From NCBI GenBank assembly GCA_050084515.1, contig CM114271.1, positions 22,568,001 through 22,632,000 on the forward strand: a stretch of DNA of 64,000 nt. The letters run 5' to 3'. Positions 3,341 to 59,479 of this stretch are shown here, piece after piece. Under the pieces are notes generated by a model that saw only the letters and a program-made list of their open reading frames with translations, had not been told where the DNA came from and did not search any database. The DNA comes from Blasia pusilla (Eukaryota). A program made the position numbers and the translations under genes. Numbering within the stretch: position 1 is the stretch's first letter; every line of letters begins with the position of its first letter.

Positions 3341-3710
3341 TACCCGTTTGATTCACAAGTGCAGTGATCAAGCGCCGGCAAGGAGAGATGGTGACCTTAG
3401 TAGCATTTAGCAGCGCCATCACTTAGCCTAGTGATTTGATTGAGGGACATATCCATGCAGAGGATATTCCCGTTCCTGATATTTCTATGGAGAGGAGTGT
3501 CATGGTAGTTGCATCAGTCCGTGGAGGAGAGGTGTTGCTTTGGGGCTCGATTGAGGAGCTCCGACGCTTAGCCAATGAGCATGTGGAGGCCGCGTGGAGT
3601 GAGACGTTTGCACCAAACGTGACGGGTCAAAGGAACCCAAGGTAGCCAAGAGTGCTATGATGACTCCATTGGATACCACACCCATTGTGTGGCGCATCCC
3701 AGAGGAGGGT

Positions 3711-28200: not shown

Positions 28201-30805
28201 CTTTAGTCGCTCAAAAACCTCTTAATGTTCCTCAAACCATCGAAACACTTTTTCTTTCCGTGTTCGGGTTTGAACCTTTTGGGTTTGAACCCCATATGTC
28301 GACTTAATTCATTGGGTTTTCTCTAATTTGTTGTGCCAAACGGTGCCCCTGCCTTCATAACATGGACCATCTTGTCTAGCTTCTCAAGACTTGGATCGTC
28401 CGCCACTAGTGGAGTAGCCATATCAATGGCCACCTTTAGCTTCCCAACTTGGTTGTTGACATAGTACTTTTCTCCCTCAATTTTCATTTCAAATTGGGTG
28501 GCATTGCCTCCACAAAGTCAAAGATTTGATTGGCGTCTCACATATCGTCCATCACTGCCAATATCTCTTGGAATTGAGTAATAAAGCTCGCAATGGAGCC
28601 TCCAAAGTGCATTTGCCACAACAAAAATCTAGCTTGAGTTGCTTGATCTTGAGGTGTCAAAAACATCCTCATTTTTTAAGGTAAGTATCCCCTAATCCTA
28701 TCATGCACCTACTCCCCACACCAATCTTATGTGTCTATGAAGTTGGCATTCAATATGTGACGCTTACCAATTTATACCCAAACACAATTAGATAAGCATG
28801 GTTGCACAAAAACGGATTAGTGCGTCCTATGTCACATCTGAGTAGCCGATAGGCCGAGATCTATCGTGGATAGGGCGTAGGAGCCATCGGACTATCTTGA
28901 GTGTAACTTTGTCCCACAGTGTCGGATGAGGTTGAGGATAGGTCCATTGTGTCAGGAACGTCGTCTCTGACAACTTTCATATTGAGGTCTTTCACAACCG
29001 GGTGACTTGTTGACCAGGTCACCCACCCCTGGTAACTTGTGCGTGCAACTTACCAAGGAGAGGGCTATTTTTAGGGGAAGAGCCTTTGGCTCTTCCCAAC
29101 CCTATATAAGAGAGGAAGATGGATTTCCTAAGCCATCTTTCTCATGTTGGGCCATTGGTGCACCTCCCTTGTATGTGTGTGAGATAGGACTAGGGTGCTA
29201 GCGTCCAGATTCCTTGATAGCACATGGTGGACGAGGCTCGATATGTCAATGTAGATTGAGGAGTGGATTTTTAGGCCGGGTGTGCCGTTTTTACTACTCT
29301 TTATTTTTACATAAGAAAGATGTCAGGGGGCTGGTGGAAATTCGTTGTTTGCAGGTAGGCAAGCGAGTTGCCTTGGTCGGGAGCTCGTGGAGACGTTGGT
29401 TGGCGTCGTATTTGTCATTTTTCTGTTCGGATGGCCGTGGGCGGAAGCGCTGTCCGTTTTTCTCAGATTTTTCTGGTGTGGATTGATGGGGGACATCAGC
29501 AGGGTGTAGCGCAAGTTGTGTCAGCATGAGTAACGTCGTCTAATAGCTAGAATGTCGGGAGTACCCAGGAAGAAGAGTTAGGGCTTGCAGCGGTCGGCGG
29601 GCTATCAAGTAAAGGGTGGATTGGTCGCCTAGGGTTAGGTCGCGCAAGTGATAGGGGTAGGGCACTATGCGTGGGAAGGAAGGCGCAGGAGGTAGCTAGG
29701 TCGGGACGAGTAAAGCTCGCGAATCGTGTGGTTGCCAAGTGTCACACGGGGGAGGTCTGGTGCACCAGGTGCAGAGGGACGTGCGTCACACGCTCGGAGG
29801 ATGCAAGGAAGCAGGGCCGCAACCGCATAGGGCTACGTGCCCTCAACGCGCCACGTAGGCCCAAGGCCGTGGTAGAGAAGGGAGAGCTGGGAGCAAGGAG
29901 CTCCAAGAAGCCCTTACTCCTTCCTGTCGCGCAAGCAGAGGTGGGAGGTCAGCCTTTGGGGCTAGGGCCGCAGGTTGGGGGACGCCGCACCGGGCCATGA
30001 AGGAATGAAGGTGGGAGCAAGGGCTGACCGCATAGGGCGGCATGCCCAAAGCTCCAAGGACATAGGAAGCTGCATAGGGCAGCGCACCAGGGTTGAGTTA
30101 GGACTGAGGTACGTGGTTTCCGTTTAGCCGGACGGAGTGGAGTTGGTTACGCGGTAGGTTCAGACGACATGGTAGGGTCAAGATGTGGTGACCAGGTCAC
30201 CAGGTTGGAGATGCTTATGTAGTTAGGAGAGTTATATGGTTGGGGTCAAGATGGACCCTCTACACTGCTGAGCTGACAATGGAGAGTTAGTGTGCTGCTG
30301 TTGGTGAGTAGTCCGTATCCGCTGACGGGAGGATCGACTTGATGCGGGCGGACATGGTTGTGATTCGGAGGTTGTCATGTCAGATGGAGGAGTGCGTATT
30401 GATGGTGCCGTAGGTTGGAGGGCATGATCACGTTACCCATTCAAGTCCCTTTTCCCGCACTTGTCGTGTGTGATTAAGAGTGCTGAGTATCGGGTAGTAG
30501 CTGGTGCTAGGTGGGTGCAGTGATGGTGACGAGTGTAGATTATGTTCATGTGTAGCATGTTGGTGGATATACTTCGGTTTTCAAGTAGGGGTCGCGTGTA
30601 TGATCCGAGAGAGTGTCGCTAGGTTAGGTGAGTCAGTTGGGAGGCTCATGGTGAGCCCGAGTGTTGAGTGTGCGTGAGGCCGGGTATGTCATCACGGGAT
30701 TGATGTTAGCATATGTGAGCTAGTGAGGCATGTGGGAGACTCTCGGAGACTCTGAGTGCTTGAGCGGGTGAGACCGGGCTTGTCATCACGGCGTTCTTCC
30801 AAGTT

Positions 30806-32374
30806 TTGGAAGAACGGGGTAGTGCGAGCAGTAGTAGTGGTGTGACACGGAGTGGAGTGAGATACCGAGGGGTTACCAATGAGGAGCTACCTCGACATCC
30901 ATCCGTGGCTGGATCGTCATCACTAGACATTGGGTCTGGTGACGAGATCGCTGACAGACACAGTAGTACTTGGCAGGAGATGGACAACATGGGCCATCGG
31001 GGCATGCGTCGTTTCTCAGGTGCAGTGGGCACCATCGACTTAGATGATTTTATCCAGGAGTTCGACACGTGATGCGACTTCCAGGAGATACGGACCCCGA
31101 CACAGTTCAACCCTTTCATGGCATGGAAGGGGTTGTTCCAGCACTTGGAGGGTCCTCCGATGGATGACTATATGGAGTTTTGATCACTATATTCAGTAGA
31201 GATCGATGCCTGTAGGATGTATTGGGCTCCAGGGTATGTGTTCACTAGTGGTCGCAAGGCATATGATGGGATTATGAGAGGAGAGAGACCCACACCATCA
31301 GCCCGAAGACTAGATGGAGAGGAGGGCAGTGAGACAGGCGATGTGGCAGAGACCTTTGGTGGTAGAGGGCCACCCACCTTCAGCCCCACAGTGGAGTTCT
31401 TCCGACAGTTGAGGAAGAGCTACCAGGGCGTACGCACCGACAAGCTGAAGAGTCTATAGGATTTTCAGTGACGATCGGGTGAGAGTCTAAGAGAGGCATT
31501 CACACGCATGAGGAGGCTGATCCTTGCTACGTTTGGAGTGACTGAGGCGCAGTCATTCCGGTATTGGTACGGGGTTCAGGATCAAGAACTACGGAGGAGA
31601 GTGCGAGATGCAGTGCTGATTCACACAGCAACGCCCACATTGAAGGTGGTCTTTGAGTTGTCTGAGCGTATTGAGCTCAACATGAGTGAGGAGCAGGTAG
31701 TGACCGGTGGATTTTCTCAAGAGTCAACGGGTCCACGAGCGATGGTGAGCCCAGAGGTGCCACAGCGAGCACCAGTACCACGGGAGCGGGCCAGTGTGCC
31801 CAGAGAGCAAGGCGGGTACCGTGAGCCTATGAGCCAACGACCCGTACCTACATATGTTGCCCAACAGGGATTGATGTGGTCTTGTTGGACGTGTGGAGGG
31901 GCCCATAGGCAGAGAAACTGCCCACAGCATGGGAGAGGACCACCAACGCTTCCAATTGCTCAGGAGCCACAGAGGATGGTCCCACCACAGCACCAGTGTG
32001 ACTATTGCCACAAATATGGTCACACTAGGGATAGATGTTTTGACCTTGGCCGAAGGGCACGTCCAGAGGTAGGCCGAGGGCCTGGGGGCGGTCGTCCTGG
32101 AGGAGGTCGGGGAGTCCTTCTTGGACGTGGTGGTAGAGGACCACCACCAGCCAGAGGAGATGGAGATGGAGCAGGAGCACCAGAGCCGGCACTTCTCTCA
32201 CGCATCAATCAGTTGGAGCATAGGATTTCTGCCATGATGATGATGCAGCTTAGGGAAGGCAAGCAGCTGCGAGCAGCTAGTGTGACTCGAGCTTCTACCT
32301 CTTACCGTGACCCGAGTGAGGATCTTGCCAATATGGGATTTATGTGTAGTGCAGCCCATGTTGAGGCACTGTAG
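30806..32374 (+). pseudogene. gag: E3 gag remnant
   Basis: FSGAVGTIDLDDFIQEFD; knuckles CWTCGGAHRQRNC and CDYCHKYGHTRDRC; GRGPGGGRPGGGRG tail. Confidence 0.82.
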
Positions 32375-33829
32375 TGGTGACTCGGGGTGCTGCGAGAGGC
32401 ATCGAGCCATCAAGAGGTGGAGTTGAGATTGACCCACAAGAGGGGACCAATGGGCGGCAGGCCAGGGTTCCACAGTCATTCACATTGTCGGAGGCACTAC
32501 ACACACCATTGATGGTGCCTCAATGACTAGCAGTGCCTACAGCTCAGGTACCTACGTGGATGTCACGAGGAGTTGGAGTGACAACTCCTATGCCGGCTCG
32601 AGTGGAGTCAGTGTCAACCATAGTGTTGGAGGTGGCCACCAGAGTGAGTCAGACTCCACTATTTTCCGCCATAGAGTTGGCGACGTTGGGAGTTGGACCA
32701 GCTGAGGTGTTCCGATTGGCCGCCACGTTGTGTGAGCATGGAGAGATGACTGCTTCTTGTTCAGAGGTAGTTGAGGAGGTGGTGGACTTGCCCTCAGAGC
32801 CAGTGCTCGGGACGTTCCTCACCGAGTCATGGCATGCGGCGGCGGCGAAGTTGGTAGATATGCCAGCTCGACCGCACATAGAGTGTTGTGCGCCTACTCT
32901 CCTTGAACGTTAATCTTGTTTGTTGCGGAAGCGTGCGTTCAGTAGGTCACGCTCTCAACGCTGATCTGCATCCAAACACGCACTTCGGTTAGTCGGGTCT
33001 TGGATCAATCAGCGGGATTACTATCCGAGTTCTCGTCTCGGACTCTCTCTTCAAGCTCAACCTTCCTAGTTTCGCGGTTTCCAACACGGGCAAGTCTCGA
33101 AAGACTTGGGACAGACTTTCTGGTCGGTTCAAGAACCTGAAACGGCGTTTCGCGGCTAGCAGTTCCAACTATCCGATGAACATCCAATGAGTTCCTCACC
33201 AAGACTCGCACGAAGTGAATCTCGGGTTGGAATCCAAGTGTGGCGCACAAAGTCCACTCCTTGGATCAGGTTTGGGTTTCGGGTTTCGCGCCAAACTCCC
33301 GTTTCATCCGTGCCTCAAACGCCGTTTGGCGCCCAAAGTGGGGTTTCGTTTCCCGAGACATCTCAAAGAAGGTACTCCCCTTACTAGTACTTCTGGGGAT
33401 CTCCGGGGCCCCTACATTTAGGAAAGACACCGGGCCCTCCATTGGCCCTCAACCCGATTGCTCTCTGAATCGTTTTCGGCCAATATCTCAGCTTGTACTC
33501 ATGCGTTTTCTGAGATCTTTGGTGCGTTGGAAGCGTCTTGAGATCAGCTTTCCAACGCGCCCTTACTTGTCCCGAACGCATCTCGGAGCTCAACGTTATG
33601 GTCCTAAACACAGTCAGATTCTCCCAAACGCTAGCCGTGTTCCAAACTGGTTCTCACCTCTTTGGCAACCAACCTCCAAGACTCAACTCATCTCAAGTCT
33701 CGGCTCGCGTTTGGTCTAGGTTTCCTGGTCGCGACCACTAACGCATGAAACGCACAACTCTGTTCCACGTTTCGTCTCTTAGACTTTTCCAAGAGATTCT
33801 TCCAAACGCCTCTCCAAAGCGCAAACCTC

Positions 33830-34530
33830 GCAGTTGTTTCTGTTATCTGCAGTACGGGGATATTATCATACGCTACTCGCCGACATCTCTTTGGTGGGGG
33901 CGCAGGATCTTGATAGAGTTGGCACCATTCATTTGGTGATTGCTGGATGGCCATGTCACGGTCATTCATCATCTGGCCGAGGATTTGGATTGCAAGATCC
34001 GAGGTCAGGGATGTGACGAGTGTACATCAGGTGAGGTCTTGGTTGGGACCTGTTATGTTGTTAGATGTAACGAGAGTTGGGTCACGTGCCCATCATCCAC
34101 GACTATGGTGGACGAACCTGATACCATCAGAGGTATTGAGTCGAGCATACGGTGGAGTCCAGAGAGCAGCACATCTCACAGTGGATGCTATTTTGGGCTC
34201 AGGGCGTCGATCTTAGGTGGTGACACGCGATGATGGACCACCGTTGGCCATGGCTAATAGGGTGGGGGAGTTGAGGGCAGCCTTACCTATGTTGGTGAGC
34301 TTCCCAGCATCCCTTGCCTTTCGTCAAGGAGGGCTAGGCATGATTTGGGATGAGGTGACCGGAGCATTGGAGGAGCCTACAGCAGATGAGTGCGAATGCG
34401 CCATGGGGTTCGCTACCGGTACTACGGCGGTGCCAAGGATGAGTGAGGCATCCCGGAGATAGGTGTTGGGGCAGGCGATGGACCTCAACTGTCTCACATG
34501 GATAGTCAGCCTAGGTATGGCTGAGTAGAG
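33830..34530 (+). pseudogene. E3 partial DNMT3-like methyltransferase
   Basis: HLVIAGWPCHG...GLQDPRSG, AHHPRLWWTNL, ECECAMGF...SEASRR*VLGQAMD; motifs I and VI are missing. Confidence 0.85.
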
Positions 34531-34879
34531 ACGGATGTGAGAGTCATCCATGATGTCACGTCGACGAGTTGGACCATTGCCTACAGGGTCTGTACAGGCA
34601 TTGGCTGGGGGCGAGACGAGGAGAGATAGGCATCCATGGACTTCCTAGAATGTCATTCGAGCAGAGAGTGCGAAGGCGTCCAGAGTAGCACATGTTCCAT
34701 TTTTTGATGTAGAGCATGGTGTAGGAGGTCAGAGTGGAGTGGTTGTTGCGGAGGTGGCTAGGGTTGCTACATAGCAACCAAAGCCGGAGGTTGCGTCCTC
34801 TCTAAGTGAGGTCACGATGGAGACTTGGGAGCCTGTGATAGGTCTCAAGTTGATAGGTGGAGAGCGACGGCGAGCTCAT

Positions 34880-37837
34880 AGGTTTTTGAGAGGGCATGTC
34901 AGTTGTTTTGCCTTCAGTATGAGAGACTTGGGTACGCTGAAGGGTCCCGGGATACCGATTGAGTTGGCTAGTGATACGCCGATCTTTCGTCGACCCTACA
35001 GGTATTGTGATATGGAGCGAGCCTTGATTTAGAGCAAGAGGCAAGACTTGTTGGAGGTAGGACTTGTGGAGTTATCAAATGGGGAATATGCATCTGCCAG
35101 AGTCATGTCGGCAAAGAAGGATATGTATGGCAATTGGACGGATAGGCGGATGTGTGGAGATTACCGTCTTATCAACCGACAGACGAGGTCAGATCGGTAC
35201 GCCATGCCTACTCCTGAGGAGATCTTTGATGCGGTAGGGCATGCAAAGATCTTCAGTACTTTAGATCTCCGTGCTTGCTATCATCGGCTTCCTATCAGGT
35301 TGGAGGACAGGGAGAAGACAGCATTCTAGGGGATAGATCGGTTCGGGAGAGATTGCTTGTATCAGTGGCGGTTCTTACCATTTGGGTTGAAGAACGTGCC
35401 TGCACAATTTTGGAGAGGGATGGATAGGATTCTGGATGGCTTGGATTGTGTACGATGTTACATAGATGATATTCTTATCTTGAGTTCCACGGTTGAGGAG
35501 CATGAGCGACACTTGGAGGAGGTGTTTTGGCGATTGCAGTTACATGGACTGAAGTTACATCCAAGCAAGTGCAGATTCTTTCAGGAGCAGATTGAGTACT
35601 TGGGACACACCATATATCCGAGTGGGTTAGGCGTTCAGCAGAAGAAGGAAGAGGCGATTGCGCAGATTCCACGCCCTACAGATGTAAGTCGAGTCCGAGC
35701 ATTTCTTGGACTGGCGAACTTCTATCGACGGTATGTCAAGGGTTTTAGTGCGATCGCAAAGTCTTTGACCTTGTTGACGAGACTTGATCAGGTTTGGTTA
35801 TCGGGAGATGATTAGTAGCAAGCATTTCAGGAGCTCAAGGATAGGTTGACGTCCTCACCAATTTTACAGAGACCGGTTAGGGGTCGCCCATTCTAGTTAC
35901 ATACGGATTGGAGCATGTTGGGTGTAGGAGCAGTGCTTACTCGGAGGGATGACGAGGAGAGGGAGTTCGTTGTGGCTTACGCGAGCCGATCGAAGAATAT
36001 TGCAGAGGTGAAGTACATCTCCTACGAGGGAGAGTGCTTGGCTGCAGTGTGGGCCGTGGCACATTTCAGGTGCTATTTATTCGGCAACCCTTTCACACTT
36101 ATCACTGATCATCAACCGTTGAGGTGGTTGATGGAGTCCGACAAGCTTGCAGGAAAGCTTGCCTGGTGGGCTCTATTACTACAGGAGTATGAGTTTGAGG
36201 TGGTTCATAGGCCAGGTCATCTGAACCAGGATGCGGATGGATTGAGTCGTAACCCATATTCAAGTCAGAGAGACAACACAGGAGCTCGATGGCACGGAGA
36301 GAGTGATGAGGAGATGGTGTCCGGTTGGCATGCATCTGCCTATCTTTTTGGTTGACTATGGCAGGTCAGCCACAGGTGATGACTCCAGTGGTGGGGTTGG
36401 ATGATGAGTCTTTGGATTCAGAGGTTAGTGGGGAGGCGACAGGTGGTCGTGATATCCATAACGACGTGGAGGTTGTGGAGTTCTTGTGCACTGGCGTCAT
36501 TGCGAGTACAGTGAGTGCTAGGGAGCGGGATCGCATCCTACAGAGAGCCAAGAGGTTCAGGTGGGAGGGGACTCACATTTTGCAGGTATGGGGAGATGGT
36601 AGGATACGAGTGGTACCTCATCCTTCCCAACGAGCACGTGTAGTGCGACATGCCCATGAGGAGTTGGGACATTTCAGAGTAAAGCGTACTTACAGCTTAC
36701 TCCAAGTTTAGTATTGGTGGCGCGGCATGCATACTGGGATACAACAATTTGTGGCCAGATGTATGGTATGTGACAGAGTGCGAGCATCCTTCAATGCTCC
36801 CACTCCGCAGTTACATCCTTTGTCGATTATGGGTTTAGGTTATCGGTGGAGTTTAGACTTTGCGGGATCTTTGCCATTGACGGGGCGTCATCATAGGTAC
36901 ATGTTGGTCATGCTGGAGCATTTCTTCAAGTGGATAGATTTGGTGGCCCTTCCAGACAAGGCGATCGAGGGAACAGCTTATGCGTTTCTAGATCGTGTGC
37001 TTAGTCACTTTGGTGCACCGGCGGAGGTGTTGACTGACCACGGTACCGAGTTCAGGGGAGAGTTTCAGGCCTTGTGTGATCAGACGCTGATAGATCACCG
37101 CACCACGTCAAGAGATCATCCTGAGGCGGATGGGTTGGCGGAGAGAGTGGTACAGACGGTGAAGAGAGAATTGCGCAAGTATGGCTTGCAGTGGGTACAG
37201 TTTAGGGAGTGGGACCTATAGTTGCCATGGTTGGCTATGGGTTATCGCTTTAGTCGGCAGACATCCTTGGCGTCATTTTCACCGTACTTTTTGCTCTTTG
37301 GGAGAGAGCCAGATTTACCTGCAACGATTCGAGGTGACATAGCGGAGGTGTTAGATCTTGATGATCCAGATGTGTGGGTACAAGCATGTTCTCAGAGGGT
37401 GGAGGTTTTTCATAGAGTTATGCCTATGGCCTTTGAGAACTTTGCTATTGCTCAGCATAGAGATACATTGAGGTACGCGACCATTCGTGGAGGAGTTTAT
37501 TGTCTAGGGATTAGGAGGTTTCATCCTCGAGATTACCTGTATTTACAGCAGGCGGCACCCACGACGCTAGATGTCACTGCAGGGCGCACGATCCTACGTG
37601 TGCACGAGGTATTACCGACCGGAGTCCTCATGTTGGAGGGACGGGATGGTATGGTTTGGAAGGATCATGTGCGCAATTGTGCGCCATGTCATCTTCCGAA
37701 CGTAGATGGGACGGTGGATCCGAGCTTGGCAGCGGTACCTGCAGGCTTGAGGTGTATGTTGTGCGGATCTGCGAGGGATGCAGCCACCATGTTGGTATGT
37801 GATGGTTCTTCTAAAGGGTGGCATATGTCATGTGTGA
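34880..37837 (+). pseudogene. pol: E3 RT, RNase H, integrase and first part of PHD
   Basis: MCGDYR, LPFGLKN, YIDDIL, FLGLANFYRR, AYASRS, TDHQPL, LDFAGS, TDHGTEF, DGLAER, CMLCGS...VCD...GWHMSC. Confidence 0.93.
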
Positions 37838-38591
37838 TTTCGTGCGAATCCACATCGTCATACAACATACATCGCTGACATACCATACTCACATACGTAC
37901 ATAACATAGACGAGAGTATCCACAAACGCAAGTGTACCACAACTGAAATCCGTGAAAGACCTACTGTCATAAAACACGTTTACAATCACATACAATCGAG
38001 CCAAACCCACTCCACGATGGGAGAATCTAGGTCAAAGCTTGCGGGAAACACCATAGACAAGAGCTCTACTCACTACCAAGGCTAACTCCCAACGCAACAG
38101 GCTCAACTCAAAGAATGATTTGTTCTTTGAGTGCACTCCACCTTATATCCTCCAACCTAAGAGCGGGCCCTACTGGGAAACTCACCCCCAACTGAGTAAC
38201 CCCCAACCCTATGTATGGAACCGCATCTCTACCAAGCCACTACGGTCCTACATAAGGAATGTCCTCTACTAGCACACTATACTCTACGACATAATCCGTA
38301 TGGTCATGACAGTTGTCGTGCGAATCCACATCGTCATACAACATACATCGCTGACATACCATACTCACATACGTACATAACATAGACGAGAGTATCCACA
38401 AATGCAAGTGTACCACAACTCGCCCCCCTAACTGGCGGTTAGGTCCCTCTAACTCCCAGGTAGCCCTATACATCTACTACATGCTATACACCTTCTTGGG
38501 TGCCCGAATCAGAAGGCCGGGTGCTAGGTTGCCCCATCGTTAGTCGCACATCTGTAATCCATATCATGCAAAGATCAAGTCATCTACTCTC

Positions 38592-40560
38592 CTAAGTACA
38601 TCGAGGACAAACCCACCTTCCAGTAGGAACGACATCCAAACATGGAGTCAAACACATCATGTGCCAACCCCTAGAACACCGATCACATACCAACATACGG
38701 GCTGCGTTACCAGCAGACCCACACAACATGCACCTCAAGCTAGCAGGTATCATGGCTAAGCTTGGATCAACAGTACCATCCACATTTGGAAGATGACATG
38801 GCGCACAATTACGCACATGGTCCTTCCAAACAACTCCATCACGACCCTCCAACATGAGAACTCCAGAAGCTAACACCTCGTGGACTCGTAAAATAGTGCG
38901 GCCTACCGTCACATCCAACGTTGTCGGGGCAATCTGCTCCAAATAGACATAGTCCCCCACATGGAACCTACGAATCGATGGTCGATAATCTCCACCTCGA
39001 ATGGTTGCATACCGCAACGTATCCCTGTGTTGAGCAATGGCAAGATTCTCAAAGGCTGTTGGCATAACTCTCCGAAAGAGCTCCGCCGCTGAGAACACAT
39101 CCTCATCCACATCTCTCGGGTCATCAAGGTTCACCACCTCACTAGACTCCCAACAATTCTTCTTTGGCAAGTCCGGATCTCGGCCGTATAACGTAAAAAT
39201 AAGGTGAGAAGGAAGCCAAGGATGCTTGGCGATCGAACCTATACCCCATGGCTAACCATGGCAACCGAATATCCGGTCTCCAAGATGCCCCTTCAGAGGC
39301 CATACTTGCGCAATGCCCTCTTCACCGCCCCGAACCACACGCTCAGCCAAACCATCCTCCTCTGGATGATCTCGAGACGTGGTCCGATGATCAATCAACG
39401 CCTTGTCATACAAGACTGAAACTCACCCGAAACTCAGACTGGTCGGTCAAGACTTCAGGTGGTGCACCAAAATAACTAAGCACTCTATCCAGAAACGCAT
39501 ACGCCATTCCCTCACTCGCCTTGTCCGTAATGCCACCAACTCAATCCACTTGGAGAAGTGCTCCACCATCACCAACACATATCGATGATGCAAATGCGAC
39601 CAACGGTAACGGTCCCGCAAAGTCCACACTCCAACGGTAACCCAACCCCATAATAGGCAAGGGGTGTAATTGTGGTATAGGGGCATTAAATGATGCCCTC
39701 ACCCGGTCACAAACCATACAACGTGACACCAAGCTCGCTGCACTGAGTATGCATGCCACGCCACCAATATCGCCAAGGAGTAAGCTATACGTGACGCTTT
39801 ACCCCAAAATGTCCCAACTCCTCATGGGCATGTCGCACAATGCGCTCTCTCGAGCCAAATGTGGCACTACTCGTACTCTACCATCCTCCCACACGCGGAG
39901 AATATGTGTTCCCTCCAATCGATACCTCTTAGCACGTTGAAGAACACGGTCTCGCTCCTTGGCACTCACTATGCCTGGCACCCTCTTTTGGTCCGTAGGA
40001 ACTCCAACACCAACGCATCATCATGAATATCACGCTGATCCGTACCACCATCTCCAACCTTAGGATCTCAAGGTGGCCATCTACCCCCTCGACTAGAGTA
40101 AGATATCACGTGGTCCTCCATACTAGAGTCCACCTAACCAACATAAAAGGCGGATGCATGCCAACCCGGGCACCATCTCCTCATCAACCTCGCCATGCCA
40201 TCTAGCCCCTGTTGTATCCTCTTGGCTAGTACATGGGTTCCTACTCAACCCATGCATCAAGGTTGGCAACTCCAGGTCTATGTACCACCTGGAAGTCATA
40301 CTCCTGTAAGATAAGAGCCCACCGTGCAAGCTTCCCTGTAAGCTTGTCCGACTCCATCAACCACTTGAGCGGTTGGTGATCAGTATCAAGGGTAAACTGG
40401 GTGCCAAACAAGTAACACCTAAAGTGTGCCACAGCCCACACTACTGCCAAGCACTCTCCCTCATATGAACTATAGCGCGACTCCGCTGCATTATTCGAAC
40501 GACTTGCATAGGCCACCACAAACTCCATGTGCTCATCATCATATTGTGTCAACACCGCAG
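38592..40560 (-). pseudogene. E4 RNase H, integrase and intact PHD finger
   Basis: AYASRSNN, TDHQPLKWL, VDFAGPLP; CMLCGSAGNAARMLVCDRCSRGWHMMCLTPCLDVVPTGRWVCPRC (C4HC3). Confidence 0.9.
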
Positions 40561-40561
40561 T

Positions 40562-41598
40562 TCCTACGGTGTGTTGACACAGTTCCTACGTGCTCATAGA
40601 AGTTGTTTTGCCTTTAGCATGAAGGAGTTGGATTCTCTGGTTGGACCCGGTATACGGATTGATTTGGCTAGTGATACGCCAATCTTCCGTCGTCCCTACC
40701 GATATAGTGATATGGAGAGGACTTGATTGAGTAGGACGTTGGACCTTTTGGAGGCTGGATTAGTGGAGTTGTCGCATGGAGAGTATGCATCGCCCATTGT
40801 CATGCTCGCTAAAAAGGATATGCATGGCAACTACACGGATATGCGGATGTGTGGAGATTACCGTCCTATCAATCGGAAAACCAAGGCCGATAGGTATGCC
40901 ATGCCTACACGAGGAGATCTTTGATGTGGTGGGGACAGAAAAGATTTTCAGTACTTTGGATCTTGAGGCGAGATACCATCAATTGCCGATTCGGAGAGTG
41001 ACAAGGCCAAGAAAAGACATTTTGGGGTGTCAACTCTCATGGCAAGGATTGTTTGTACGGTGGAAATTCTTACCCTTTGGGTTGAAGAATGCACTGCCGA
41101 GTTTCAAAGAGTGATGGACAGGATCCTAGCAGGGGTTGGATTTTGTTGGTGTTACATTGATGATATCTTGGTGTTGATAACACGGTGGAGGAGCATCAGA
41201 TACATTTGCAGATGGTGTTTGAGCGGTTGAAAGCTCATGGTCTACGTTTGCATCCAGGAAAGTGTAAGTTCTTCCATGAGGATGTTGAGTACTTGGGTCA
41301 TGTGATCTATCCAGGTGGTTTGGGAGTTCAGCAAGCAAAGGTGGAGGCTATTGCACTTATTCCGCGTCCGGTAGATGTGAGTAGAGTTCGAGCATTCATG
41401 GGATTGGCGAACTACTATCGGAGGTATGTGAAGGGATTTAGTGCTATGGCAAAGCCTTTGAACCAATTGCTGAAATCAGATCAAGAGTGGCACTGGGGAG
41501 ATGATCAGGAGAGAGCTTTTGTGGAGCTTAAGGCCCAGTTGGTGGCGGCGCCTATCTTGAGGAGACCTATCAGAGGGCGCCCATTTCAGTTACACACC
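40562..41598 (+). pseudogene. E4 reverse transcriptase, inverted relative to the rest of E4
   Basis: MCGDYRPIN, LPFGLKNA, YIDDIL and FMGLANYYRR on the plus strand, between minus-strand RH and MTase. Confidence 0.85.
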
Positions 41599-41949
41599 TT
41601 GAGCGTCGTTTCTCACCTCCCGTAAGCTTGGGCCTAAGTAATGGCTCCCAAGTCTCCTCCACTAGCACACTAGAGGGAGAGGACGATGCCATTGGTCGCA
41701 TAACCCCCTCACAAGATGGTACACCCTAGCTACACCATCATCGAGCAAATAACTCCTCCACCAAAGCATGAGCAACCAACTCCACATGCCCGCCATTACA
41801 TCCCATTTACCCAAGGATGCAAAATACTACTGTTCCATCCGCTTTGTTATGCCGTGATGCCTCTACCGCCCGGGAGCCATCGAGCTCATTACAAGGGGTG
41901 GAAGACCCAAAGACATAGTCCGAAGTCGACGCTGCTCGGCCATACCAAG

Positions 41950-42850
41950 ACTCAAAATCCAAGTCAAACAATTCAGGTCCATGGCTGACCCAACACATGA
42001 CGCCGTGAAGCCTCATAAATAGAAGCAACCGATGTCACACCAAAGAGTTAAATCCCATCGCACGCTCTCTCATCGCGTTAGGCTCCACCAAGCGCCGCAC
42101 ATGAGAATCCCATACAAGTACCCGGGACCACCTTCCCCGAGGCATGTGACGCGGAAAACTCACAAATGTGGGTAGTGCCATCCTAGGTGGCCCACACGGT
42201 TCACTTGCCATGCTTGGGTGACCGATCAATAACCCTCACCACTTGAGAAAGTTCGCCAAAGATTCAAGATACTATCCACTGTAAGGCGAGGATCCATCAA
42301 CGCATCATATGCTCCGAGAACCTCCCTAGGCAACAAGTTTGTCCACCACAAGCGTGGGCGATGTGCATTGAGCGTTATTTAGGAACGCATCAACAACCGC
42401 TGGTCCAATCAAGACCGCACCTCAAAAACACCGCCATCATCCGGTCCAGTGTCACCCAACAATGGAACATTCTCGAATGTAAGCTAGAGCACGTGCTCGA
42501 TGAACCGCGGAAGATGTCGTAACACCCGTGAACATCTCCCAAAACAATCGAGACCTAGGGTCATGTAATCCCTCACCACGACCAAATCAGACGTGATGAC
42601 TGGACATGGCCATCCCATCAATCACCAAATGCAGGAAACCCTCTCAAGGTCCTGCGCCCCCAACAATGCAATGTGTGATGGTAAAGCACGCTGGTACCCA
42701 CGAATAGCTGATGGCGGCAACAACTCAGGATATCTCCGCATCAACTGACCAATATGTCGGGATGAGACTCTATGGGCCGTCTCATCTCGCTCCACATACA
42801 CGTATCTCCGCACAGGAATACCGGCCTGCAACACTGCCGCCAAACCAGTG
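41950..42850 (-). pseudogene. E4 DNMT3-like methyltransferase remnant (indel-rich)
   Basis: LAAVLQAGIPVRRYVYVE, GWPCP-like motif IV, DPRSRLFWE, ENV, HRPRLWWTNL, ERAMGF; truncated before motif I. Confidence 0.8.
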
Positions 42851-45800
42851 GAGTAGGTCTTTTTTCAACTTCTATGGAGGGATGGAATTATTTAGGGAAT
42901 TGGGGTGCTATTTAAATTTTAATTGAGGAGTGAATTAATTAATTAAGTGGAATGTTATTACTCCTTTAAGATTTAAGAAAGTGGAGATTATATTTAAATT
43001 TTGAAATGAAAAAATATTTCTAAATTATTAAAGAAAATCATTTTCATGTGCAAGAAAGAGCATGTTAACGAGTTATTGTGATAATGAGATGATCTTTCAA
43101 AGTTTGATGGTTGCAAAAGATATTTTTTACCTTACTTTTATTTTTGGATGTCAAATTTCATTCCTTAAAGATAACTCTACATACTTCTAAGATATCCATG
43201 AAGGCTTTGACATATTTTCAAAAAAAAAAAATTTTTTTTTTACTCAAGAAAAATCATGGAGTAATAAAATGGAACTGGTTTATGGTGCCCAACAAAAGGA
43301 TATCACTCCGTGCTCAACATGCATCCTTGGCATTGTTTTCACCATTTTGCTCTATGGGGAGAGAGTCGGACCTACCTATAGCTATTCAATATGATATGGT
43401 GGAGGCGTTGGTTTTGATTTTGATGTTTGCAAGCCTATTCATAAACAAAAGCGGAGTTTTTTTCAGAGAATTATGCCTATGGCATTTGAGAACTTAGCTC
43501 TTGCTGATATAGTGATACATTAAGATATCAAATCATTCGTGGAGAAGGTTATTGTCCAGGGATTGGGAGGTTCCATCTTGGAGATTATGTGTATTTATAG
43601 CAAGCGGCCCCATGCTCTAGATGTCCCTATAAAATAATTTTGAGTGTCGCAAGGTGTCACTAGGGTTGAGATTATGTGAAACATCAAAAGTCCGTGTCCA
43701 CGAGCATGTCCATGTCCGCAAGCCCGTTATACAATGTGGGCCACAACCTCCCCAAGCTCACTCACCACCAACCTCCCAAGTAGATCCAATCTCTCTCAAC
43801 ACCATAGCTCTCAAATGTGGACACTCTCACATGGCTGAATGTCAAACCTTACCCATTATCCTAATGAGAGGCTTGTGGGATTACACTCACAAGGCAATCA
43901 AGTGCATAGCTCTACGGACGCGGGTCTCATGCCAAGAGGGTTCAACAAAGAGAGAATGAGCTCTCAAGCTCTCTGTTGGAGGTATACTCGGGCCTGGTTC
44001 CCTCTCCCAGGCTCTCCAAAATCTTGGTGTAGGCTCTACTAGATCTTGCCTAGTCGGCTCAGCTAAGGGCGGGCCTTTAACAAACCAGTCCGCACTTGCA
44101 CTAGGACCGTGACGGTCCTAGTGCAAGCTTAAGCGTGGTTTGTTACAAGTTTTAGGATAGATCGGCAAGATCTAGTAGAGCGGCTTCGAAGATTTTGGAG
44201 AGAGCTTGGGAGAGGGAAGGGAGTATACCTCCAACAGAGAGAGCTTGAGAGCTCATTCTCTCTTTGTTGAACCTCTTGGCATGAGGCGGTAGAGCTATGC
44301 TCTTGCTTGCCTTGTGAGTGTAATCCAAGCCTCTCATTAGGATAATGGGTAAGGTTTGACATTCAGAGAGACATGTGAGAGTGTACACATTTGAGAGCTA
44401 TGGTGTTGAGAGAGATTGGATCTACTTGATTTACAAAGAGAGAATGGGTGAGTGAGTGAGCTTCATGGGGGAGCTTGCTGGTTTTTCAGGTTGGGGATTG
44501 TATAACTCGTGCAGCGGTTCATGGGAGTGCTCATTGGAGCAAGAGCCGCTTACTTTTGATGTTTCCTTTGCCGATTTTTTGTGTGAAAGAGTGGCGCGCG
44601 AAAGCACTACCCAATTTTTTATAGGGATTGAGCATGGGGGCGGGTTGCCCCATTTCGGTGCTCTGAGGGACATCATGTAGCTTGCTGATTTTTATTTTCA
44701 TAGGTTTTACATTTTAGTGGGAGAAATCACGTGGAACACTCAAATTTTGCATAGGAGACAAAGACATTGGGCTGCATGGGTCCCTGTTTGTTTTTGGTGG
44801 AAAATCAAATGGAGAAACCAATTTGACAAAGTCATAGATGATTTGATATCTTAATGTATCACTATACTGCTAAAGAAAAGGTTCACAATTTGGATATTGA
44901 GCACGGAGTTATGATCCTTTTGTTGCACTGCCATAGCCTTTGTTCCAAGTGTGAGTGAAAATTGAATTTTTGGGTAGAAATTCTTTCTTGAGAGGTAGTA
45001 GAGAAAAAAATCAGTTTACTTGGTGGATGGGACAAGTGAATTCAGCTATTTGGAGGTAGGGTAGTAGATCCCATTTTTGGGGCCGTTGATTTTCAATCTT
45101 AGGAGGGATTTTCTTGGTAAGGCATTCAATTTTTTTGTCAAGAGGGAGTTGTCAAGTAAGGAAAGATCTTGGAGATCCAATTTTCCTCGGGAGTTATTCT
45201 AGTTAAAAAATTAAAAAACTTAAAAATAAATAAAATAAAATTTAAGGTAGGATAATATCTTTTGCAACCATGTCAAACTTTGAAAGATCATCTCATTATC
45301 ACAATAACTTGTTAACATGCTCTTTATGCTCTATGGTCCGTCAATGATTTGAGGGTCTTTAATAATTTAGGATTTTTTTCATTTCAAAATTTAAAATAAT
45401 CTCCACTTTCTTAAATCTTAATGTAATAACATTCCATAATTAATCCATCCGACCTCAATTAAAATTTAAATAGCCCATAATTCCCTAAATAATTCCATCC
45501 CTCCATAGAAGTTGAAAAAAAGACCGGCTCCTCGTGGTTTCACGGCCGGCCATTTGCATTTTTGGATTGATGGGATAGTGTTCCATGCTTTGTTATGCGT
45601 GATTTGTAGCGCTCGGCCATAGAGTACCATCCCGACATATTGGTCGATTGAACGCCGGCCAAGATGCCACGTCGTCGCTTGTGGCCACCGCATCGTCTCG
45701 ATCGCCGAGCGAACCATCACTAGACATTGTATTGTTGTTAAGGAGGGTAGGACCTTTAGAGAGTGTCCGTGCTATTTGTGCGTTAAAATGGAGTGGCCAT

Positions 45801-48529
45801 GTACCACTAGAAGTCACCGCGTATCGAGGAGATTTGAGCATTACATGACCCTAGGTCTCGACTTGTTTTGGGAGATGCCTTCATGACCAAGTTGGGGTTT
45901 TTCAATTACTAAGGTGCGACATCAACACTTGTTGTCCGATTACCCATTATGGTCTTTTCGAGAATGCACGTGTGAGGGATTTTTTCGGTATTGGGCGTTA
46001 TTTAGGATATTGATTTTCGTGCTAATTGAGCATCATTGATATATGGGTTAGGGAACATAGACCTGTGTGGGATGTTTAGAGTTGAGGGTATGTCCTGTCG
46101 ATGAGATGATAGGACAGTAGACTATTTTCCGCACCACGCCGCTTGTTGCCGCACAACACACGTCTTAGTGAGAGAGTGTGGATTGAGTGTCGCCTGTTTA
46201 GTTGAGTGCTTGAGTGATTACTCATGAGGTTGAGAGTGATTGTGTGAGGGGGGCATGAGGGTCATCACGGCGTCCTTTCGGGACTTTGGGGGCAAGGTGG
46301 TTGACCTGAGAGTAGCTCTAGAGGGTTGACCCGGAGTGGTGCAAGGTTTCAAGAGTCTCCACGTGAGAGACCACCTCGATCTCCTTCTATGTCATCTTCA
46401 GACAAGGGGGAGAGTGTATAGGAGTGTGTTAGTGATCCACCGCACACATTGAGTGGTCCTACTAGTTGGGCGTACGAGATGGACGACCGGAGTAGAGGAC
46501 AGCGTAGGTTTTCGGGTGCTATAGGCACTATAGAGTTACACGATTTCATTGCGGAGTTTAGGAGTTGGTCTGACTGGCAACCTGGATTCAAAGATAGGTC
46601 TCTGGCACCACGAGCTCGGAGAGGATACCAGGAGACCATGCCACAGAGGCTTGCGCCTCCATATGTGGCTCAGCACTAGCCGCCTATGATTACTTGTTGG
46701 TCATGTGGTGGAGCCCATCATCAGCGCGATTGCACTCATCAGGATCATGGACGCGTGCCTCAACATGGAGGAGGAGATGGTGGTGCACCAGGAGGTTATC
46801 AGTGTGACTGTTGTCAGAGATATGGTCACACATGCACGAAGTATTTCAGCTTGTACCTTGAGTTACGTTCCGACCGAGGGCTAGAGAGAACCAAAGCCAG
46901 TTTCTGATCCAGGTGAGCCTAGAGGTCGTGCCCCAGGTGATCCTGTTGGGGGATGAGGGGTTCGATTTGCCCAAAGGGATGGTGGAGTTTCCCATGGAGG
47001 AGGTAGAGTCCCACCACCTAGACGCGTCGAGGGAGACGCTGGGCGTGAGGCTTGGATGGTTGCTCAGATACAACAACTATAGCAACAGATTGCCGCTATG
47101 GCATTGAGGTTATCCTATGCTAGATCCGTGGCATCGACGTCTTATGGAGTCGCCAGAGATATGGAGGATCTTGGTTGAATGTGCGGGGATGCCCAGATGG
47201 AGGCCGCCATAATTATTACGTGTGGAGCAGCCGCAGAGTTGGATCCACTGGGAGGGGAAGCCAAGAAACATACTAGGCTTCCTCAGTCCTTCATGTTGTC
47301 CGAGGCGATGAGGACCCCGTCGATGGGTCTTGATCAGAGTTCTCGGAGAGTTGGTGATGTTTTTGGTGTGCAGGCAGGGAGAGGAATGGGAGAAGCGAGT
47401 GCGACGACTCCTATTGCTGATGCTCAGGAGGAGCATGTATCGAGCACGTTGTTGGGGGCGGCCATTGTTGTGTTCCGCGCTCCTTTATTTTCAGCTTCCG
47501 ATGTTATGACGTTGGAAGGTATGCCCGCCGAGGTTTTTTGGCTTGCCACTACGCTATGTGAACATGGAGTTGATGTTCTTGCGTCACACTCAGGAGTGAT
47601 TGCAGAGGAGATGATGGACTTGCCCTTGGAGCTTATGATCGGGCCATCCACGTCAGATTCATGGCAGGCCGCGGTAGCTAGGATGGCAAAGATGCCCACT
47701 AGACCCGCGATAGAGTGTGCCATGGCTTCTCCTGGTGTTATGTTTCTGGATAAATGGGGATAGGTCTTCCAGTCGGTGAGTCTAAGAGGTAGAGCTTTTA
47801 GTCCGCAATGCGTCTTGTTGGATTCACGAGCGCAATCCCTAATGTTGGGGAAAGCGTCATTGAGAGGATTAGGCTTGACGAGAGCCGATGTGGAGCGTTG
47901 TCATTCCAGATCTGAGAAATCCTTGGGTGGAGCGAGTACCATAGAGTATATCACCCGATAGGAGGTCATGGTGAGGATTTTCCTTGGACACCCTACAGAT
48001 GAGTCCGTGGTGCGAGCCAAGGCGATAGTGACCAATGCAGAGTCCTACGATGTCTTGGTTGGTGGAGCAATGTTGTACCCGATGGGGTTTTCCTTGGATT
48101 ACTGGGAGGAGTTAGCATCCTATAGACCAGGGGCAGTCAGAGGATGGACGCCTGAGCTCATTACTCGTTTGATTCATAGTTGCAGTGATTGAGCCCCGGC
48201 CAAGAGAGATGGCGACCTTAGTAGCATTTAGCAACGCCATCACTAGGCCTAGTGATTTGATTGAAGGACACATCCATGCAGAGGACACTCCTATTCTTGA
48301 CATTTCTATGGAGAAGAGTGTCATGGTAGCCGCATCAGTCCATGGATGAGAGGTGCCGCTTTGGGGCTCGATTGAGGAGCTTTGATGCTTAGCCACTGAG
48401 CATGTGCATACCGCATTGAGCAAGATATTTGCACTAGAGCGTGATGGGTCATAGGAACCCAAGGTAGCAAGAAGTGCTATTATGACCCCTTAGGACACCA
48501 CCTTGATTGTGTGGTGCATCCAGAGGAGG

Positions 48530-49490
48530 GTATTAGGGTGTTGGATCTCTTTGGAGGGATTAATATTGGGTTAGCTGTTGTTTTGCAGCCAGGAGTACGC
48601 ATACAACAATACCTGTATGTGGAGATTGATGATGTTGTAAGACGCGCTTCACTTTACCATGTGGCGTAGTTACACCTCTGTTTTCCCGACTTTTTGTTTG
48701 CGTCCACTATCCAAGGATACGAAAGTTTCCCATCGGAGATATTTCATTGTAGGGGGCGCATGACTTGGAGTGGGTAGGGACCATAGACTTGGTCAGTGCT
48801 GGTTGGCCGTGTCAGGGCTAGTTGATTGCTGGACGGGGTAGCGGATTAGGTCACTCGCGATCTAAGTTGGTTTGGGAGATGATGCCAATCTTGCGATATT
48901 TACAGGAGAATCAGTCCCATTCTCCAGCATATATTTTGGAGAATGTGCCAATTTTGGGCGATTTGAGATCCTACGTGGTGACGAGTGCACATCAAGTGCG
49001 CGCATAGATTGGTGCGGTAGTGTTGTTGGATATAGTGAGTGTAGGTTCACGAGCACATTTCCCGCGTCTTTGATGGACCAACTTGGTGCCACATGAGGTT
49101 TTGTGGAGGGCGATGCAGAGTGGGCGCCCCTCGATTTTTTTGCTGGATTCTATTCTGGATCCAGGTCGTCAATCAAAGGCAGTGAGGCACGATGATGGAC
49201 CGCCGTTGACTGTGGTCAATAGTATTGGCATGCCACGCGTAGTCTTTCCCACATTTGTGAGTTTTCCTGCTTCCTATTCATTCAAGGAGGCCAGACCTAG
49301 CTTGGTTTGGGATGACCAAGTACAGAGGTTAGTGCAGCCCAACGTTGATGAGCGAGAGTGAGCGATAGGATTCCCCACAAGAGTGACGTCAGTACCTTCA
49401 CTATCAAAGGCATCACGACATCATGTCTTGGGTCAGGCAATGGACCTCAACTGCTTGACATGGATTTTCAGCTTAGGAATAGCTGAGCAG
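48530..49490 (+). pseudogene. E5 DNMT3-like methyltransferase
   Basis: IRVLDLFGGINIGLAVVLQ, YVEID, AGWPCQG, RSKLVWE, YILENVP, PRL*WTNL, VLGQAMDLNCL. Confidence 0.9.
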
Positions 49491-50463
49491 AGTCATTTTA
49501 GGATGCGACGGATCACAGCTATTGCGTTGGTGAGCCCCATGCCTACCGAGACGGTTGAGGCAATGGCTTGGGGCAAGACCTGAGGAGATTAACATACCAG
49601 GGATGATTGGGAGAGACACCCTTGGACTTCTTGGGATGTTATGCAGGTACGCCAAGAGATGGTAGCCACAACATCGAGCGTGGTTCCGGGTACTGCACAT
49701 GGAGATCATATTTTGTCAGCTGGTTGTAGGAGAGCAATCAAAATTTGGTGTTCGAGACAGGTTTGCACTATAGCAACCACCTACAGCCACTCCAGAGAGT
49801 CCTACCCTAGTCACGATGGAGACTTGGGAGCCAGACATGGGCCCTAAGATGACAAGAGGAGAGCAGCGCCTGATACATCAATTCCTGAGGAGTTATAAGA
49901 GTTGTTTTGCATTAAGCATGCAGGATTTGCGTACGTTGAAGGGTCCACGGATCCGCATTGACTTGTCGAGTGACACGCAGATCCTCCAATGACCCTACAG
50001 ATACAGTAACATGGAGAGGGCTCTGATTCAAAGTAGGAGCCAGGACTTGGTTGGAGCGGGACTAGTGGAGATGTGGCATGGAGAGTATGCATATGCCACT
50101 ATCATGCCCACCAAGAAGGATGTGCATGGCAATTGGATGGATAGGCAGATGTGTGGAGATTACCGACCTATCGATCGGCGGATGAAGTATGATAGGTATG
50201 CCATGCCCACCCGTGAGGAGATCTTTGATACGATTGGGCATGCACAGGTCTTTAATTCATTCAATTTGTGAGCCAGATACCATCAACTGCCTATGAGATT
50301 GGAGGACATGCAGAATACTTCATTTTGGAGCATCAATCCTCATGGGAAGGATTGTTTGTATAAGTGGCGGTTCTTACCATTCGGGTTAAAGAATACCCCG
50401 GATGAGTTTCAGAGGGTCATGGATAGGATCTTGGCAGGTCTTGATTTTTCTAGGTGTTATATT

Positions 50464-52910: not shown

Positions 52911-53873
52911 ATAGCAGGTTTCTCCTTTGTCTCGGCTCATTTGGAGCCATATAGAGAAACTTACTATTTTGGGTAAGTTTCTATATTTGGTATAGATGAC
53001 TTTCTACTTTGGGAAGTGGCCCTTGACTTGCTATAGTAGGTCAAGAGCCAAAGAGGTGACCTGCGAGCATAGGTTACCGAGGAGAGAGCTTGGAAGAGGG
53101 AAGGGGTTATACCTCCAACAGAGAGAGAGCTTGAGAGCTCATTCTCTCTTTGTTGAACCTCTTGGCATGAGGCGGCGGAACTATGGTCTTGCTTGCCTTA
53201 TGAGTGTAACCCAAGCCTCTCATTAGGAGAGTGGGTTTGGTTTGACATTGAGAGAGACATATGAGAGTGCACACATTTGAGAGCTATGGTGTTGAGAGAG
53301 ATTGAATCTACTTGATTTACAAATTAGAGATATTTTGGTACTTCTTATCTCATTGTTTGGATGCTATGAGTTAGCATAGGATCGTGCATGTTTGTATGTA
53401 TGTTCGGTGATAACAATGTATGTTGTGTAGCGATGTGTATGCGCACGACAGGTTTGTGTACGGGGTAGGGTACTTGAAGCCTTGAAGGGTAGAAGGGTTG
53501 GAGAGAAAGTAGAGGATAAGATAGTTATATTAGAGAATAGGTTAGTTACCAATGAGAGTAGAAGAAGTGGGGAAAGTATTGATGGAGAGAAGAAAAGAGA
53601 ATGTTAAAATATCATTGAATATGGTGGTTGTATTGGAAAATAGGTGGGTTGGAAATACAAGTTGATAAAGAAGTTAGGATAGGTGAAAAAAGGAATGGGA
53701 TAAGAGAACAAAATAAGATTTTCTAAATGGTGATTAGTGGAGATGGTTTAGGAAGAAATTGTAAGTGGGGATAGATGACGAAAAAGAATGAAGGATTTAT
53801 TCTCTTCCTTCCATCCTCCCCTATATAAACTTGCTCATTTTTTGTATACCCTCACAATCTTATTCCACCCTTC

Positions 53874-53875
<2 letters not shown>

Positions 53876-53919
<44 letters not shown>
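53876..53919. repeat. (CT)n microsatellite
   Basis: Direct read. Confidence 0.9.
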
Positions 53920-53921
<2 letters not shown>

Positions 53922-54199
53922 TATTTTTTGGAAGTTTTTTTTCTCCATAGATAGCTGAACTTAATAAGTGAGAATATGTTTTGGCACTGGATAACCCTAA
54001 TAATTAAAGGTATCTCGGTTATCTAGGTTAGCATATTAATCTTTCTTGTTCATAGTGAGTGTTCCACATTTGTTATTGGAGCATTCACATACAATATTTG
54101 GTATAATTTGCATACATTTTACTGGTCGATATATCCTACTATTGACATTGTAAAATTATTGCGAATTATCCAAAAATTATTGGGTGGGGTTAGTGTCTA

Positions 54200-59290: not shown

Positions 59291-59479
59291 TTTTTGCGAG
59301 TAAGGTCTTGTGATGGGAGATGGCCTTGTGATTGTTGGGGTCTAAGTTTTCACTCTGCTTTGCTATGCTTCCTGATTGGTAGCCGCTCAACGACGATCGA
59401 GTACCCTGTCATGATGTTCATAGTTGCAACGCGCCGTCGATTGTCGCACCATGCCGCTCGTAACTGTATCACACCATCT

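Follow-up and report, generated by a model that had tools for sequence, protein, structure and literature searches.

Retroelement copies in the window

The window analysed here is a stretch of 64,000 nucleotides (64 kb) from Blasia pusilla (GenBank assembly GCA_050084515.1, contig CM114271.1, positions 22,568,001 to 22,632,000) that has the character of repeat-rich plant nuclear DNA. In a self-comparison of the window, one retroelement family is represented by several copies, all decayed, which fall into three subfamilies about 30% apart: E1, E5 and E7 in the first, E4 in the second and X' in the third. Two repeat segments, denoted A and B, flank the coding region of the long-form copies in the order A1-internal-B1-A2-B2, and an internal junction, B1-NN-A2, joins what look like the two ends of the element across two nucleotides (NN).

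On the evidence of their predicted domains, the elements are of the Ty3/gypsy type, with gag, a C5 DNA methyltransferase (DNMT), reverse transcriptase (RT), RNase H, a DDE integrase and a PHD finger. Pfam matches in E1, X' and E4 follow the order RVT_1, RT_RNaseH, Integrase_H2C2, rve and a C-terminal PHD finger, and RT, RNase H and DDE integrase come in the identical order in intact related proteins. Motifs I, IV and VI of the methyltransferase read DLFGGI, GWPCHG and ENV in E1; in E5 and X', motif IV was found in the region read. The methyltransferase domain, with its catalytic PC motif (GWPCHG or GWPCQG), is located upstream of RT at 3603-4070 in E1, at about 48600-48900 in E5 and at about 33700-33900 in X'. 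The methyltransferase part has relatives in Marchantia, Calypogeia and Sphagnum. The domain is present in many proteins annotated as "hypothetical" in M. polymorpha, Calypogeia and Sphagnum, and in the M. polymorpha protein P0197, DNMT (residues 460-529), RT (833-919) and RNase H (974-1098) are found in a single chain. Relatives of the integrase-PHD part, which carry rve, Integrase_H2C2 and PHD, occur in Marchantia, Calypogeia, Haematococcus and Chlamydomonas eustigma. We dropped the label "Chlamyvir" for PHD-integrase elements, since the papers found give that clade chromodomains and leave a PHD finger unmentioned. No Phage_integrase match, the mark of a tyrosine recombinase, was obtained in 147 open reading frames (ORFs) of the window (27 + 120) or in nine related proteins; rve was found instead. 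The absence from the window ORFs alone would be weak evidence, because the copies are decayed.

E4 is a complete, long-form element, whose present length is due to other material nested inside it (Table 1). Its insertion split a PHD-finger frame belonging to X', an older copy. Beyond E4 this frame resumes in phase, with a duplication of the residues VI: X' runs to ..GWHMSCVI on the left and continues from 63120 with VIPPLDVVPTGRWMCPRCV and a stop on the right, while the intact frame of E4 reads ..GWHMMCLTPCLDVVPTGRWVCPRCT and a stop. Since the X' frame can be read across the E4 site, 37838-63119 is one insertion. We had considered E4 and E5 as simple elements on the minus strand. Self-BLAST ruled this out: E5 is a plus-strand element with an inversion, and E4 extends over 25.3 kb to an A1 at 62757-63119. 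An A-like copy at 43777-44084, belonging to E7, was likewise rejected as the A1 of E4, as it is of the E1/E5 type and the A2 of E4 is 95% identical to 62757-63119. Within E4, the segment 40577-41598, which matches the RT region of E1 at 5010-6022, is inverted relative to the rest of the element, a second internal inversion in addition to that of E5 described below; one of its breakpoints is near the border of RT and RNase H, as in E5. A satellite array with a 180-bp period is also nested in E4 (57587-59238; 9.2 copies, 78% matches), with a higher-order period of 361 bp.

Table 1. Retroelement features of the window, with positions numbered from its first nucleotide. PBS, primer-binding site; PPT, polypurine tract.
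Feature	Position	Strand	Description
E4, complete long-form element	37838..63119	-	25.3 kb; A1-PBS-internal-PPT-B1-NN-A2-B2
E4 target duplication TCAC (GTGA on + strand)	37834-37837, 63120-63123		4 bp
E4 A1	62757..63119	-	363 nt; start TGTCATG; 95.1% identical to A2 (351/369 columns)
E4 PBS ACTCAAAGAA	62747..62756	-	adjoins A1 end; complements TTCTTTGAGT within A
E4 PPT agttaggggggcg	38421..38433	-	stops at B1 start; motif also in E1, E5 and X'
E4 B1	38314..38420	-	107 nt; end ..CGCACGACA; 98.1% identical to B2 (105/107)
E4 2-nt spacer, ac in element orientation	38312..38313	-	between B1 end and A2 start
E4 A2	37945..38311	-	367 nt; start TGTCATG; end joined straight to B2 start
E4 B2	37838..37944	-	right element end ..CGCACGAAA; adjoins target duplication
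E4 ORF, integrase C-terminus and PHD finger	38595..39251	-	Pfam PHD E=2.4e-9
E1 C5 DNA-methyltransferase domain	3603..4070	+	Pfam DNA_methylase 27.4 bits, cut-off 22; upstream of RT
E1 3' block	8158..8920	+	B1 8158-8285, spacer ac 8286-8287, A2 8288-8793, B2 8794-8920
E5, long-form element with internal inversion	44141..53450	+	A1 44141-44436, A2 remainder 52893-53322, B2 53323-53450
E5 PBS AGAGAGAATG	44437-44446	+	directly after A1
E5 target duplication GGTT	44137-44140, 53451-54		4 bp
E5 inverted segment, 2.4 kb	50465..52901	-	RNase H-integrase-PHD-PPT-B1-spacer-A2 start
Features within E5 inversion			B1 50561-50688; spacer ag 50559-50560; first 94 nt of A2 50465-50558
X', older short-form copy A-internal-B	28830..63393	+	A1 28830-29313, PBS-like 29314-29322, B 63257-63393
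X' target duplication CCTA	28826-28829, 63394-63397		inside MITE-like repeat

Element ends and the internal junction

The B1/A2 junction reads ..gtgcacaata-ac-TGTCAAG in E1 (plus strand, 8285-8288), ..cgcacgaca-ac-TGTCATG in E4 (minus strand, 38311-38314) and, in element orientation, ..gtgcacgaca-ag-TGTCACG in E5 (50558-50561), exactly as quoted in a first-pass annotation of this DNA. B ends in GACA (AATA in E1), A starts with TGTC, and the spacer between them is two nucleotides in all three internal junctions (ac, ac and ag). The annotation had described these junctions as the right and left element ends set 2 nt apart, and had named a spacer that varied between copies as evidence against its interpretation; the 2-nt length is kept in all three. 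The ends of the element are repeated accordingly on the outside: the start of A2 is that of A1 in E4 (TGTCATGACC in both), the corresponding pair in E5 is TGTTACAAG and TGTCACGAC, and the end of B2 repeats the end of B1. A degenerate version of the junction pattern matched four sites in the window versus 0.34 expected, but the test is circular, since the pattern was written from these junctions. We rejected 63386-63398, with an apparent spacer of cc, as a fourth junction: it is composed of the end of X', the CCTA duplication and a repeat resembling a miniature inverted-repeat transposable element (MITE), the other half of which is found at 28797-28829.

The outer start of A1 and the outer end of B2 (B in X') adjoin 4-bp target duplications in the three elements for which both boundaries are present (E4, E5 and X'), with 4/4 bases matching in each and an ambiguous fifth base in each. 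A1 start and B2 end are thus the true insertion boundaries, most convincingly so for E4 with its readable insertion site. Together, the termini make up a short inverted repeat, TGTC..GACA, and B is 71-84% conserved between subfamilies over its last ≈60 nt. Two identical, direct long terminal repeats (LTRs) were not found at the ends of the inserts; instead, the 5' end consists of A only and the 3' end of B-NN-A-B. A1 occurs without a following B in E4, E5, E7 and X', and the split-direct-repeat layout A1-internal-B1-A2-B2 is displayed by E4, E5 and, as far as its 3' side, E1. The arrangement A-internal-B-NN-A-B within a target duplication, as proposed in the annotation, is therefore present in E4 and E5, and X' is flanked by a duplication as well. 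The join between A2 and B2 consists of the A end (as found before the PBS) and the B start (as found after the PPT), exact to the base in both copies in which this could be tested: ..cggatttc-AGTTGTGG in E4 and ..gatttacaa-ATTAGAGA in E5.

E1 is seen from its 3' side only, its A1 lying beyond the left edge of the window; its PPT (..ctagggggcg) ends at 8157, and its B1 and B2 are 88.5% identical. In E5, the identity is 84.4% for B1/B2 and 92% for A1/A2. The annotation had counted E5 as a junction copy. This junction is genuine, but E5 is a plus-strand element in which B1, the spacer and the start of A2 are located inside an inverted segment. The orientation of this segment is reversed relative to E1, and the breakpoints of the inversion fall in the RT YIDD codons (50464/50465) and at a 9-nt microhomology, GTCCTTGAG (52893-52901), with a loss of ≈350 nt. 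The inversion looks like a microhomology-mediated rearrangement. Autointegration was rejected as its origin, since the breakpoints are away from the TG/CA ends.

The older copy X' ends at B, and no second copy of its A1 was found in the 64-kb window. X' is therefore a short form, A-internal-B, lacking A2-B2. Its target was one copy of the MITE-like repeat, which is ≈300 bp long and is present at 27394-27675, at 55735-56060 and, split by X', at 28797-28829 with 63394-63680. The repeat ends in CATGGTTGCA..TGCAACCTTG and has internal GGACAAGTCC motifs. The right flank of E5 resembles it weakly (score 28 over ≈110 nt, purine-rich), and a target preference is not established.

Primer sites and predicted transcript start

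A conserved polypurine motif, ..CCTAACC.CCA..TAGGGGGGCG, ends exactly at the first base of B1 in all four copies, bearing out the placement of the PPT before B1 in the annotation. At the other side of the coding region, the end of A is set independently by the A2/B2 boundary, and the PBS begins at the next base in both E4 and E5. The annotation had also placed a PBS after A1, and its position held in these two copies, but not its expected kind: no TGG-type site complementary to a tRNA follows A1, and ARAGORN found zero tRNA genes in the window. Instead, the PBS is an exact 10-nt reverse complement of a word in the element's own A, ACTCAAAGAA with TTCTTTGAGT in E4 and AGAGAGAATG with CATTCTCTCT in E5. 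A shuffled A contained a complement of the 10 nt in 68 of 20000 trials for E4 and in 4 of 20000 for E5. Since the PBS words of E4 and E5 differ between the subfamilies, the two partners covary. The PBS-like equivalent in X' is a 9-nt complement (CATCTTTCT with AGAAAGATG).

Upstream of the 5' motif, at a distance of 29-31 nt, E4 (31 nt) and X' have a TATAA sequence, and E5 has TATAC at 30 nt. The PBS complement ≈30 nt past a TATA box suggests self-priming of the Tf1 type at a predicted transcript start, and places the putative promoter and the R region inside A. In minimum-energy folds of the predicted leader, the 5' end pairs with the PBS in E5 and X'. Elements of the Tf1/Tj1 type have a PBS complementary to the 5' end of their own RNA instead of to a tRNA (PMC4600332). 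The self-complementary PBS of the window family would resemble theirs, with 10-nt complements that covary between subfamilies and self-priming predicted from the sequence; Tf1, unlike the window elements, has ordinary LTRs.

A model for integration

With the PPT before B1 and the PBS after A1, reverse transcription should build an LTR of the form B-NN-A. The genomic A-internal-B-NN-A-B would then be a circular permutation of the expected product, in which the left B has moved to the right end, and its formation would need the A end of the complementary DNA (cDNA) to be joined to the B start and a break to be made at one GACA-NN-TGTC. Our best reading, held with moderate confidence, is that the integrated form is indeed such a permutation of the DNA expected from reverse transcription and that integrase cuts a circle-type junction. 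The RNA would extend from inside A1 to inside A2, and two-jump synthesis would convert it into (B-NN-A)-PBS-internal-PPT-(B-NN-A). Joining of the cDNA ends, as in a 2-LTR circle, would create the A/B contact, whereupon integrase would nick after CA on both strands of one GACA-NN-TGTC site. The CA-3'OH ends produced by these nicks would be recessed, each beside a 2-nt 5' overhang, presumably equivalent to the geometry of processed retroviral ends, and integrase would insert the processed ends with a 4-bp stagger. We infer both the circle and the role of integrase as junction cutter from the sequence of the elements; an internal cut by integrase in LTR-LTR junctions has been described for prototype foamy virus (PFV; PMC1180852) and for HIV-1 (PMC1905944).

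A 3' copy of R is retained by the long form alone, which would therefore be the only form able to replicate. The short form X' may be a recombinant between B1 and B2 or a product cut at both junctions. We also considered that the layout is secondary, the extra A-B having arisen by tandem partial duplication, unequal recombination or an adjacent, internally deleted copy, with no role for the junction. The region has undergone much rearrangement (inversions in E4 and E5, a palindrome around 44110), and X' has A-internal-B only, as such an origin would suggest. However, the layout and the 2-nt spacer are common to three subfamilies ≈30% apart, the A1/A2 and B1/B2 pairs of E4 are equally young, the short form lacks the 3' R and could not replicate, and the Klebsormidium elements described below share the layout (PMC5890265). 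A secondary origin is consequently very improbable.

The target duplications and the product would be identical if the same cut were made with no circle at all. In that case, the CA-NN-TG site in the left LTR of a linear cDNA would be cut, the processed ends would be inserted, and host end-joining would create A2-B2. One event of junction cleavage would be enough, but the chromosome break would persist until it was repaired, and imprecise A/B joins should be frequent, whereas both testable joins are exact. Like the circle, this route predicts a mirror form that was not seen (see below), and we consider it quite improbable.

Several observations weigh against integration by cutting of a circle-type junction, or limit how far it can be told from its alternatives. 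An identical product would be left if the outer ends were joined once integration had taken place, or if RT itself made the circle. The two junctions of a symmetric 2-LTR circle are equivalent, and cutting at the other one predicts the mirror form A/B-NN-A-internal-B. This form was found in none of the three long-form copies, and the 5' end of E7 also consists of A followed by leader. The circular intermediate proposed in the first-pass annotation is thus in keeping with the primer positions, the spacer, the duplications and the exact A2/B2 joins (2/2), while the mirror form that it also predicts is missing from a sample of only three long-form copies. The A2/B2 join of E1 lacks four nucleotides (ACAA) present in E5, and the A1 with which it would be compared is off the window. 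Pairing between the 5' end and the PBS is absent from the minimum-energy fold of E4. Although E5 is nested in E4, its repeat pairs are more diverged (92%/84% for A1/A2 and B1/B2, versus 95%/98%), and its A1 is ≈230 nt shorter than its A2, while the model makes the two equal at insertion. All copies are decayed, their frames broken by stops, and the region contains inversions and a palindrome. The informative sample is four copies in one 64-kb window, three of them long-form.

The palindrome spans 42533-45877 with its center at ≈44110, and consists of E7, an inverted partial copy of the E5 5' end (A1 and leader), arranged head to head with E5. The symmetry extends through a flank of ≈30 nt to a central ..accgtgacggt.. 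sequence. The same ≈230 nt of A are missing in both arms, which are ≈80% identical, compared to 92% for A1/A2 of E5. An isolated fragment of an integrase C-terminus at 43318-43628 (plus strand), 74% identical to X' 37262-37578, is located in the left arm, in the orientation opposite to E7.

Comparison with known systems

The closest likeness in domains and layout is to KnitGypsy-Dnmt3 of Klebsormidium nitens, the repeats of which are called "the same as that of a DIRS retrotransposon" (de Mendoza et al. 2018, PMC5890265). The two share a Gypsy-type domain set, a C5 DNA methyltransferase in the polyprotein and the order A-coding-B-A-B (PMC5890265). The host of KnitGypsy-Dnmt3 is a charophyte alga, whereas that of the window family is a liverwort-like land plant. 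As far as the paper and its supplements were searched, neither the sequence of the junction nor a target duplication of this family, its primer sites or a mechanism is given; the one mention of a TSD is about LINEs (PMC5890265). No Klebsormidium protein was among the named matches of the integrase-PHD and methyltransferase searches, which depend on shared words. A literature search for the junction or its mechanism turned up the repeat layout in one Gypsy paper (PMC5890265) and no other description; the papers listed on retrotransposons with split direct repeats all dealt, judging by title and abstract, with tyrosine-recombinase elements or were general reviews. As the Gypsy layout was found in the Klebsormidium paper alone, the window family is a new land-plant member of a little-studied kind, and the mechanistic reading of the CA-NN-TG junction given here seems to be unpublished within the literature searched.

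To our knowledge, PAT, Ngaro and VIPER elements have neither a target duplication nor TG..CA ends. They encode a tyrosine recombinase, whereas the window elements have a DDE integrase, TG..CA ends, a 4-bp duplication, a PPT and a PBS. The likeness lies in the order A1-internal-B1-A2-B2, and in the idea, put forward for PAT-like, Ngaro and VIPER elements, that insertion uses a B/A junction of a circular copy (PMC4157794, PMC7192593). We weighed a route in the style of DIRS, PAT and Ngaro, in which template switches by RT on the internal B1-A2 bridge would restore a complete or circular copy from a transcript of less than full length, a proposal made for split-direct-repeat elements, and integrase would open B/A. 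The A1-B1-A2-B2 layout is what defines PAT and Ngaro elements (PMC4157794), a Gypsy family with such a repeat structure is stated to exist (PMC5890265), and the exact A/B join fits a templated origin. Nevertheless, with a PPT right before B1 and a self-primer right after A1, ordinary two-jump LTR synthesis is simpler, and no tyrosine recombinase domain was found in the window ORFs and related proteins searched. Moreover, the DIRS-1 circle is itself unproven, DIRS-1 cDNA being mostly linear and single-stranded (PMC7192593). This route is, in our judgment, unlikely.

Retroviral 2-LTR circles offer a counterpart of the junction postulated in the circle model. The retroviral circle junction has four bases between CA and TG. 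The window family has two, and its outer insert ends are the junction halves. The retroviral junction is confined to a circle formed as a by-product, and proviruses carry ordinary LTRs, whereas the window junction is permanent, inside the LTR defined by reverse transcription. The likeness is to the near-palindromic ..CA-N-TG.. junction of right and left ends in PFV and HIV-1 circles, which integrase cuts internally, yielding processed ends (PMC1180852, PMC1905944).

Implications

The accepted integration substrate of retroviruses and LTR retrotransposons is the linear cDNA, and 2-LTR circles are regarded as dead ends. We tentatively propose, although we would put it at somewhat below an even chance, that a lineage of DDE-integrase retrotransposons in bryophytes, and probably in charophyte and green algae, moved its integrase sites from the tips to the middle of the LTR, making the end-joined form an obligatory substrate and integrase a junction-cutting enzyme. 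If this is true, a circle-type junction would be the normal substrate for a DDE integrase. The old circle-junction model proposed for retroviral integration would then be realized in nature, and the lineage would have converged with the tyrosine-recombinase retroelements. The methyltransferase and PHD finger of the family would then be tied to an unusual life cycle. It would also be understandable if pipelines looking for a pair of identical LTRs annotated the family wrongly. Marchantia polymorpha, a tractable model plant, has annotated proteins closely related to those of the family, which makes the model directly testable, and many transposable elements are reported to be up-regulated in Mpmet mutants (preprint 10.1101/363937).

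Other features of the window

The only clear host gene seen is a GH17 beta-1,3-glucanase with an X8 domain, encoded by an uninterrupted frame of 456 codons at 12430-13797 (minus strand). Its best named relatives are in M. polymorpha (82% identity over 92% of the length) and Riccia fluitans (76%), as would probably be seen in a marchantiid liverwort other than M. polymorpha. Remnants of hAT-type transposases, with the hAT dimerisation domain and DUF659, are found at 18559-20577 (minus strand) and 54672-55208 (plus strand).
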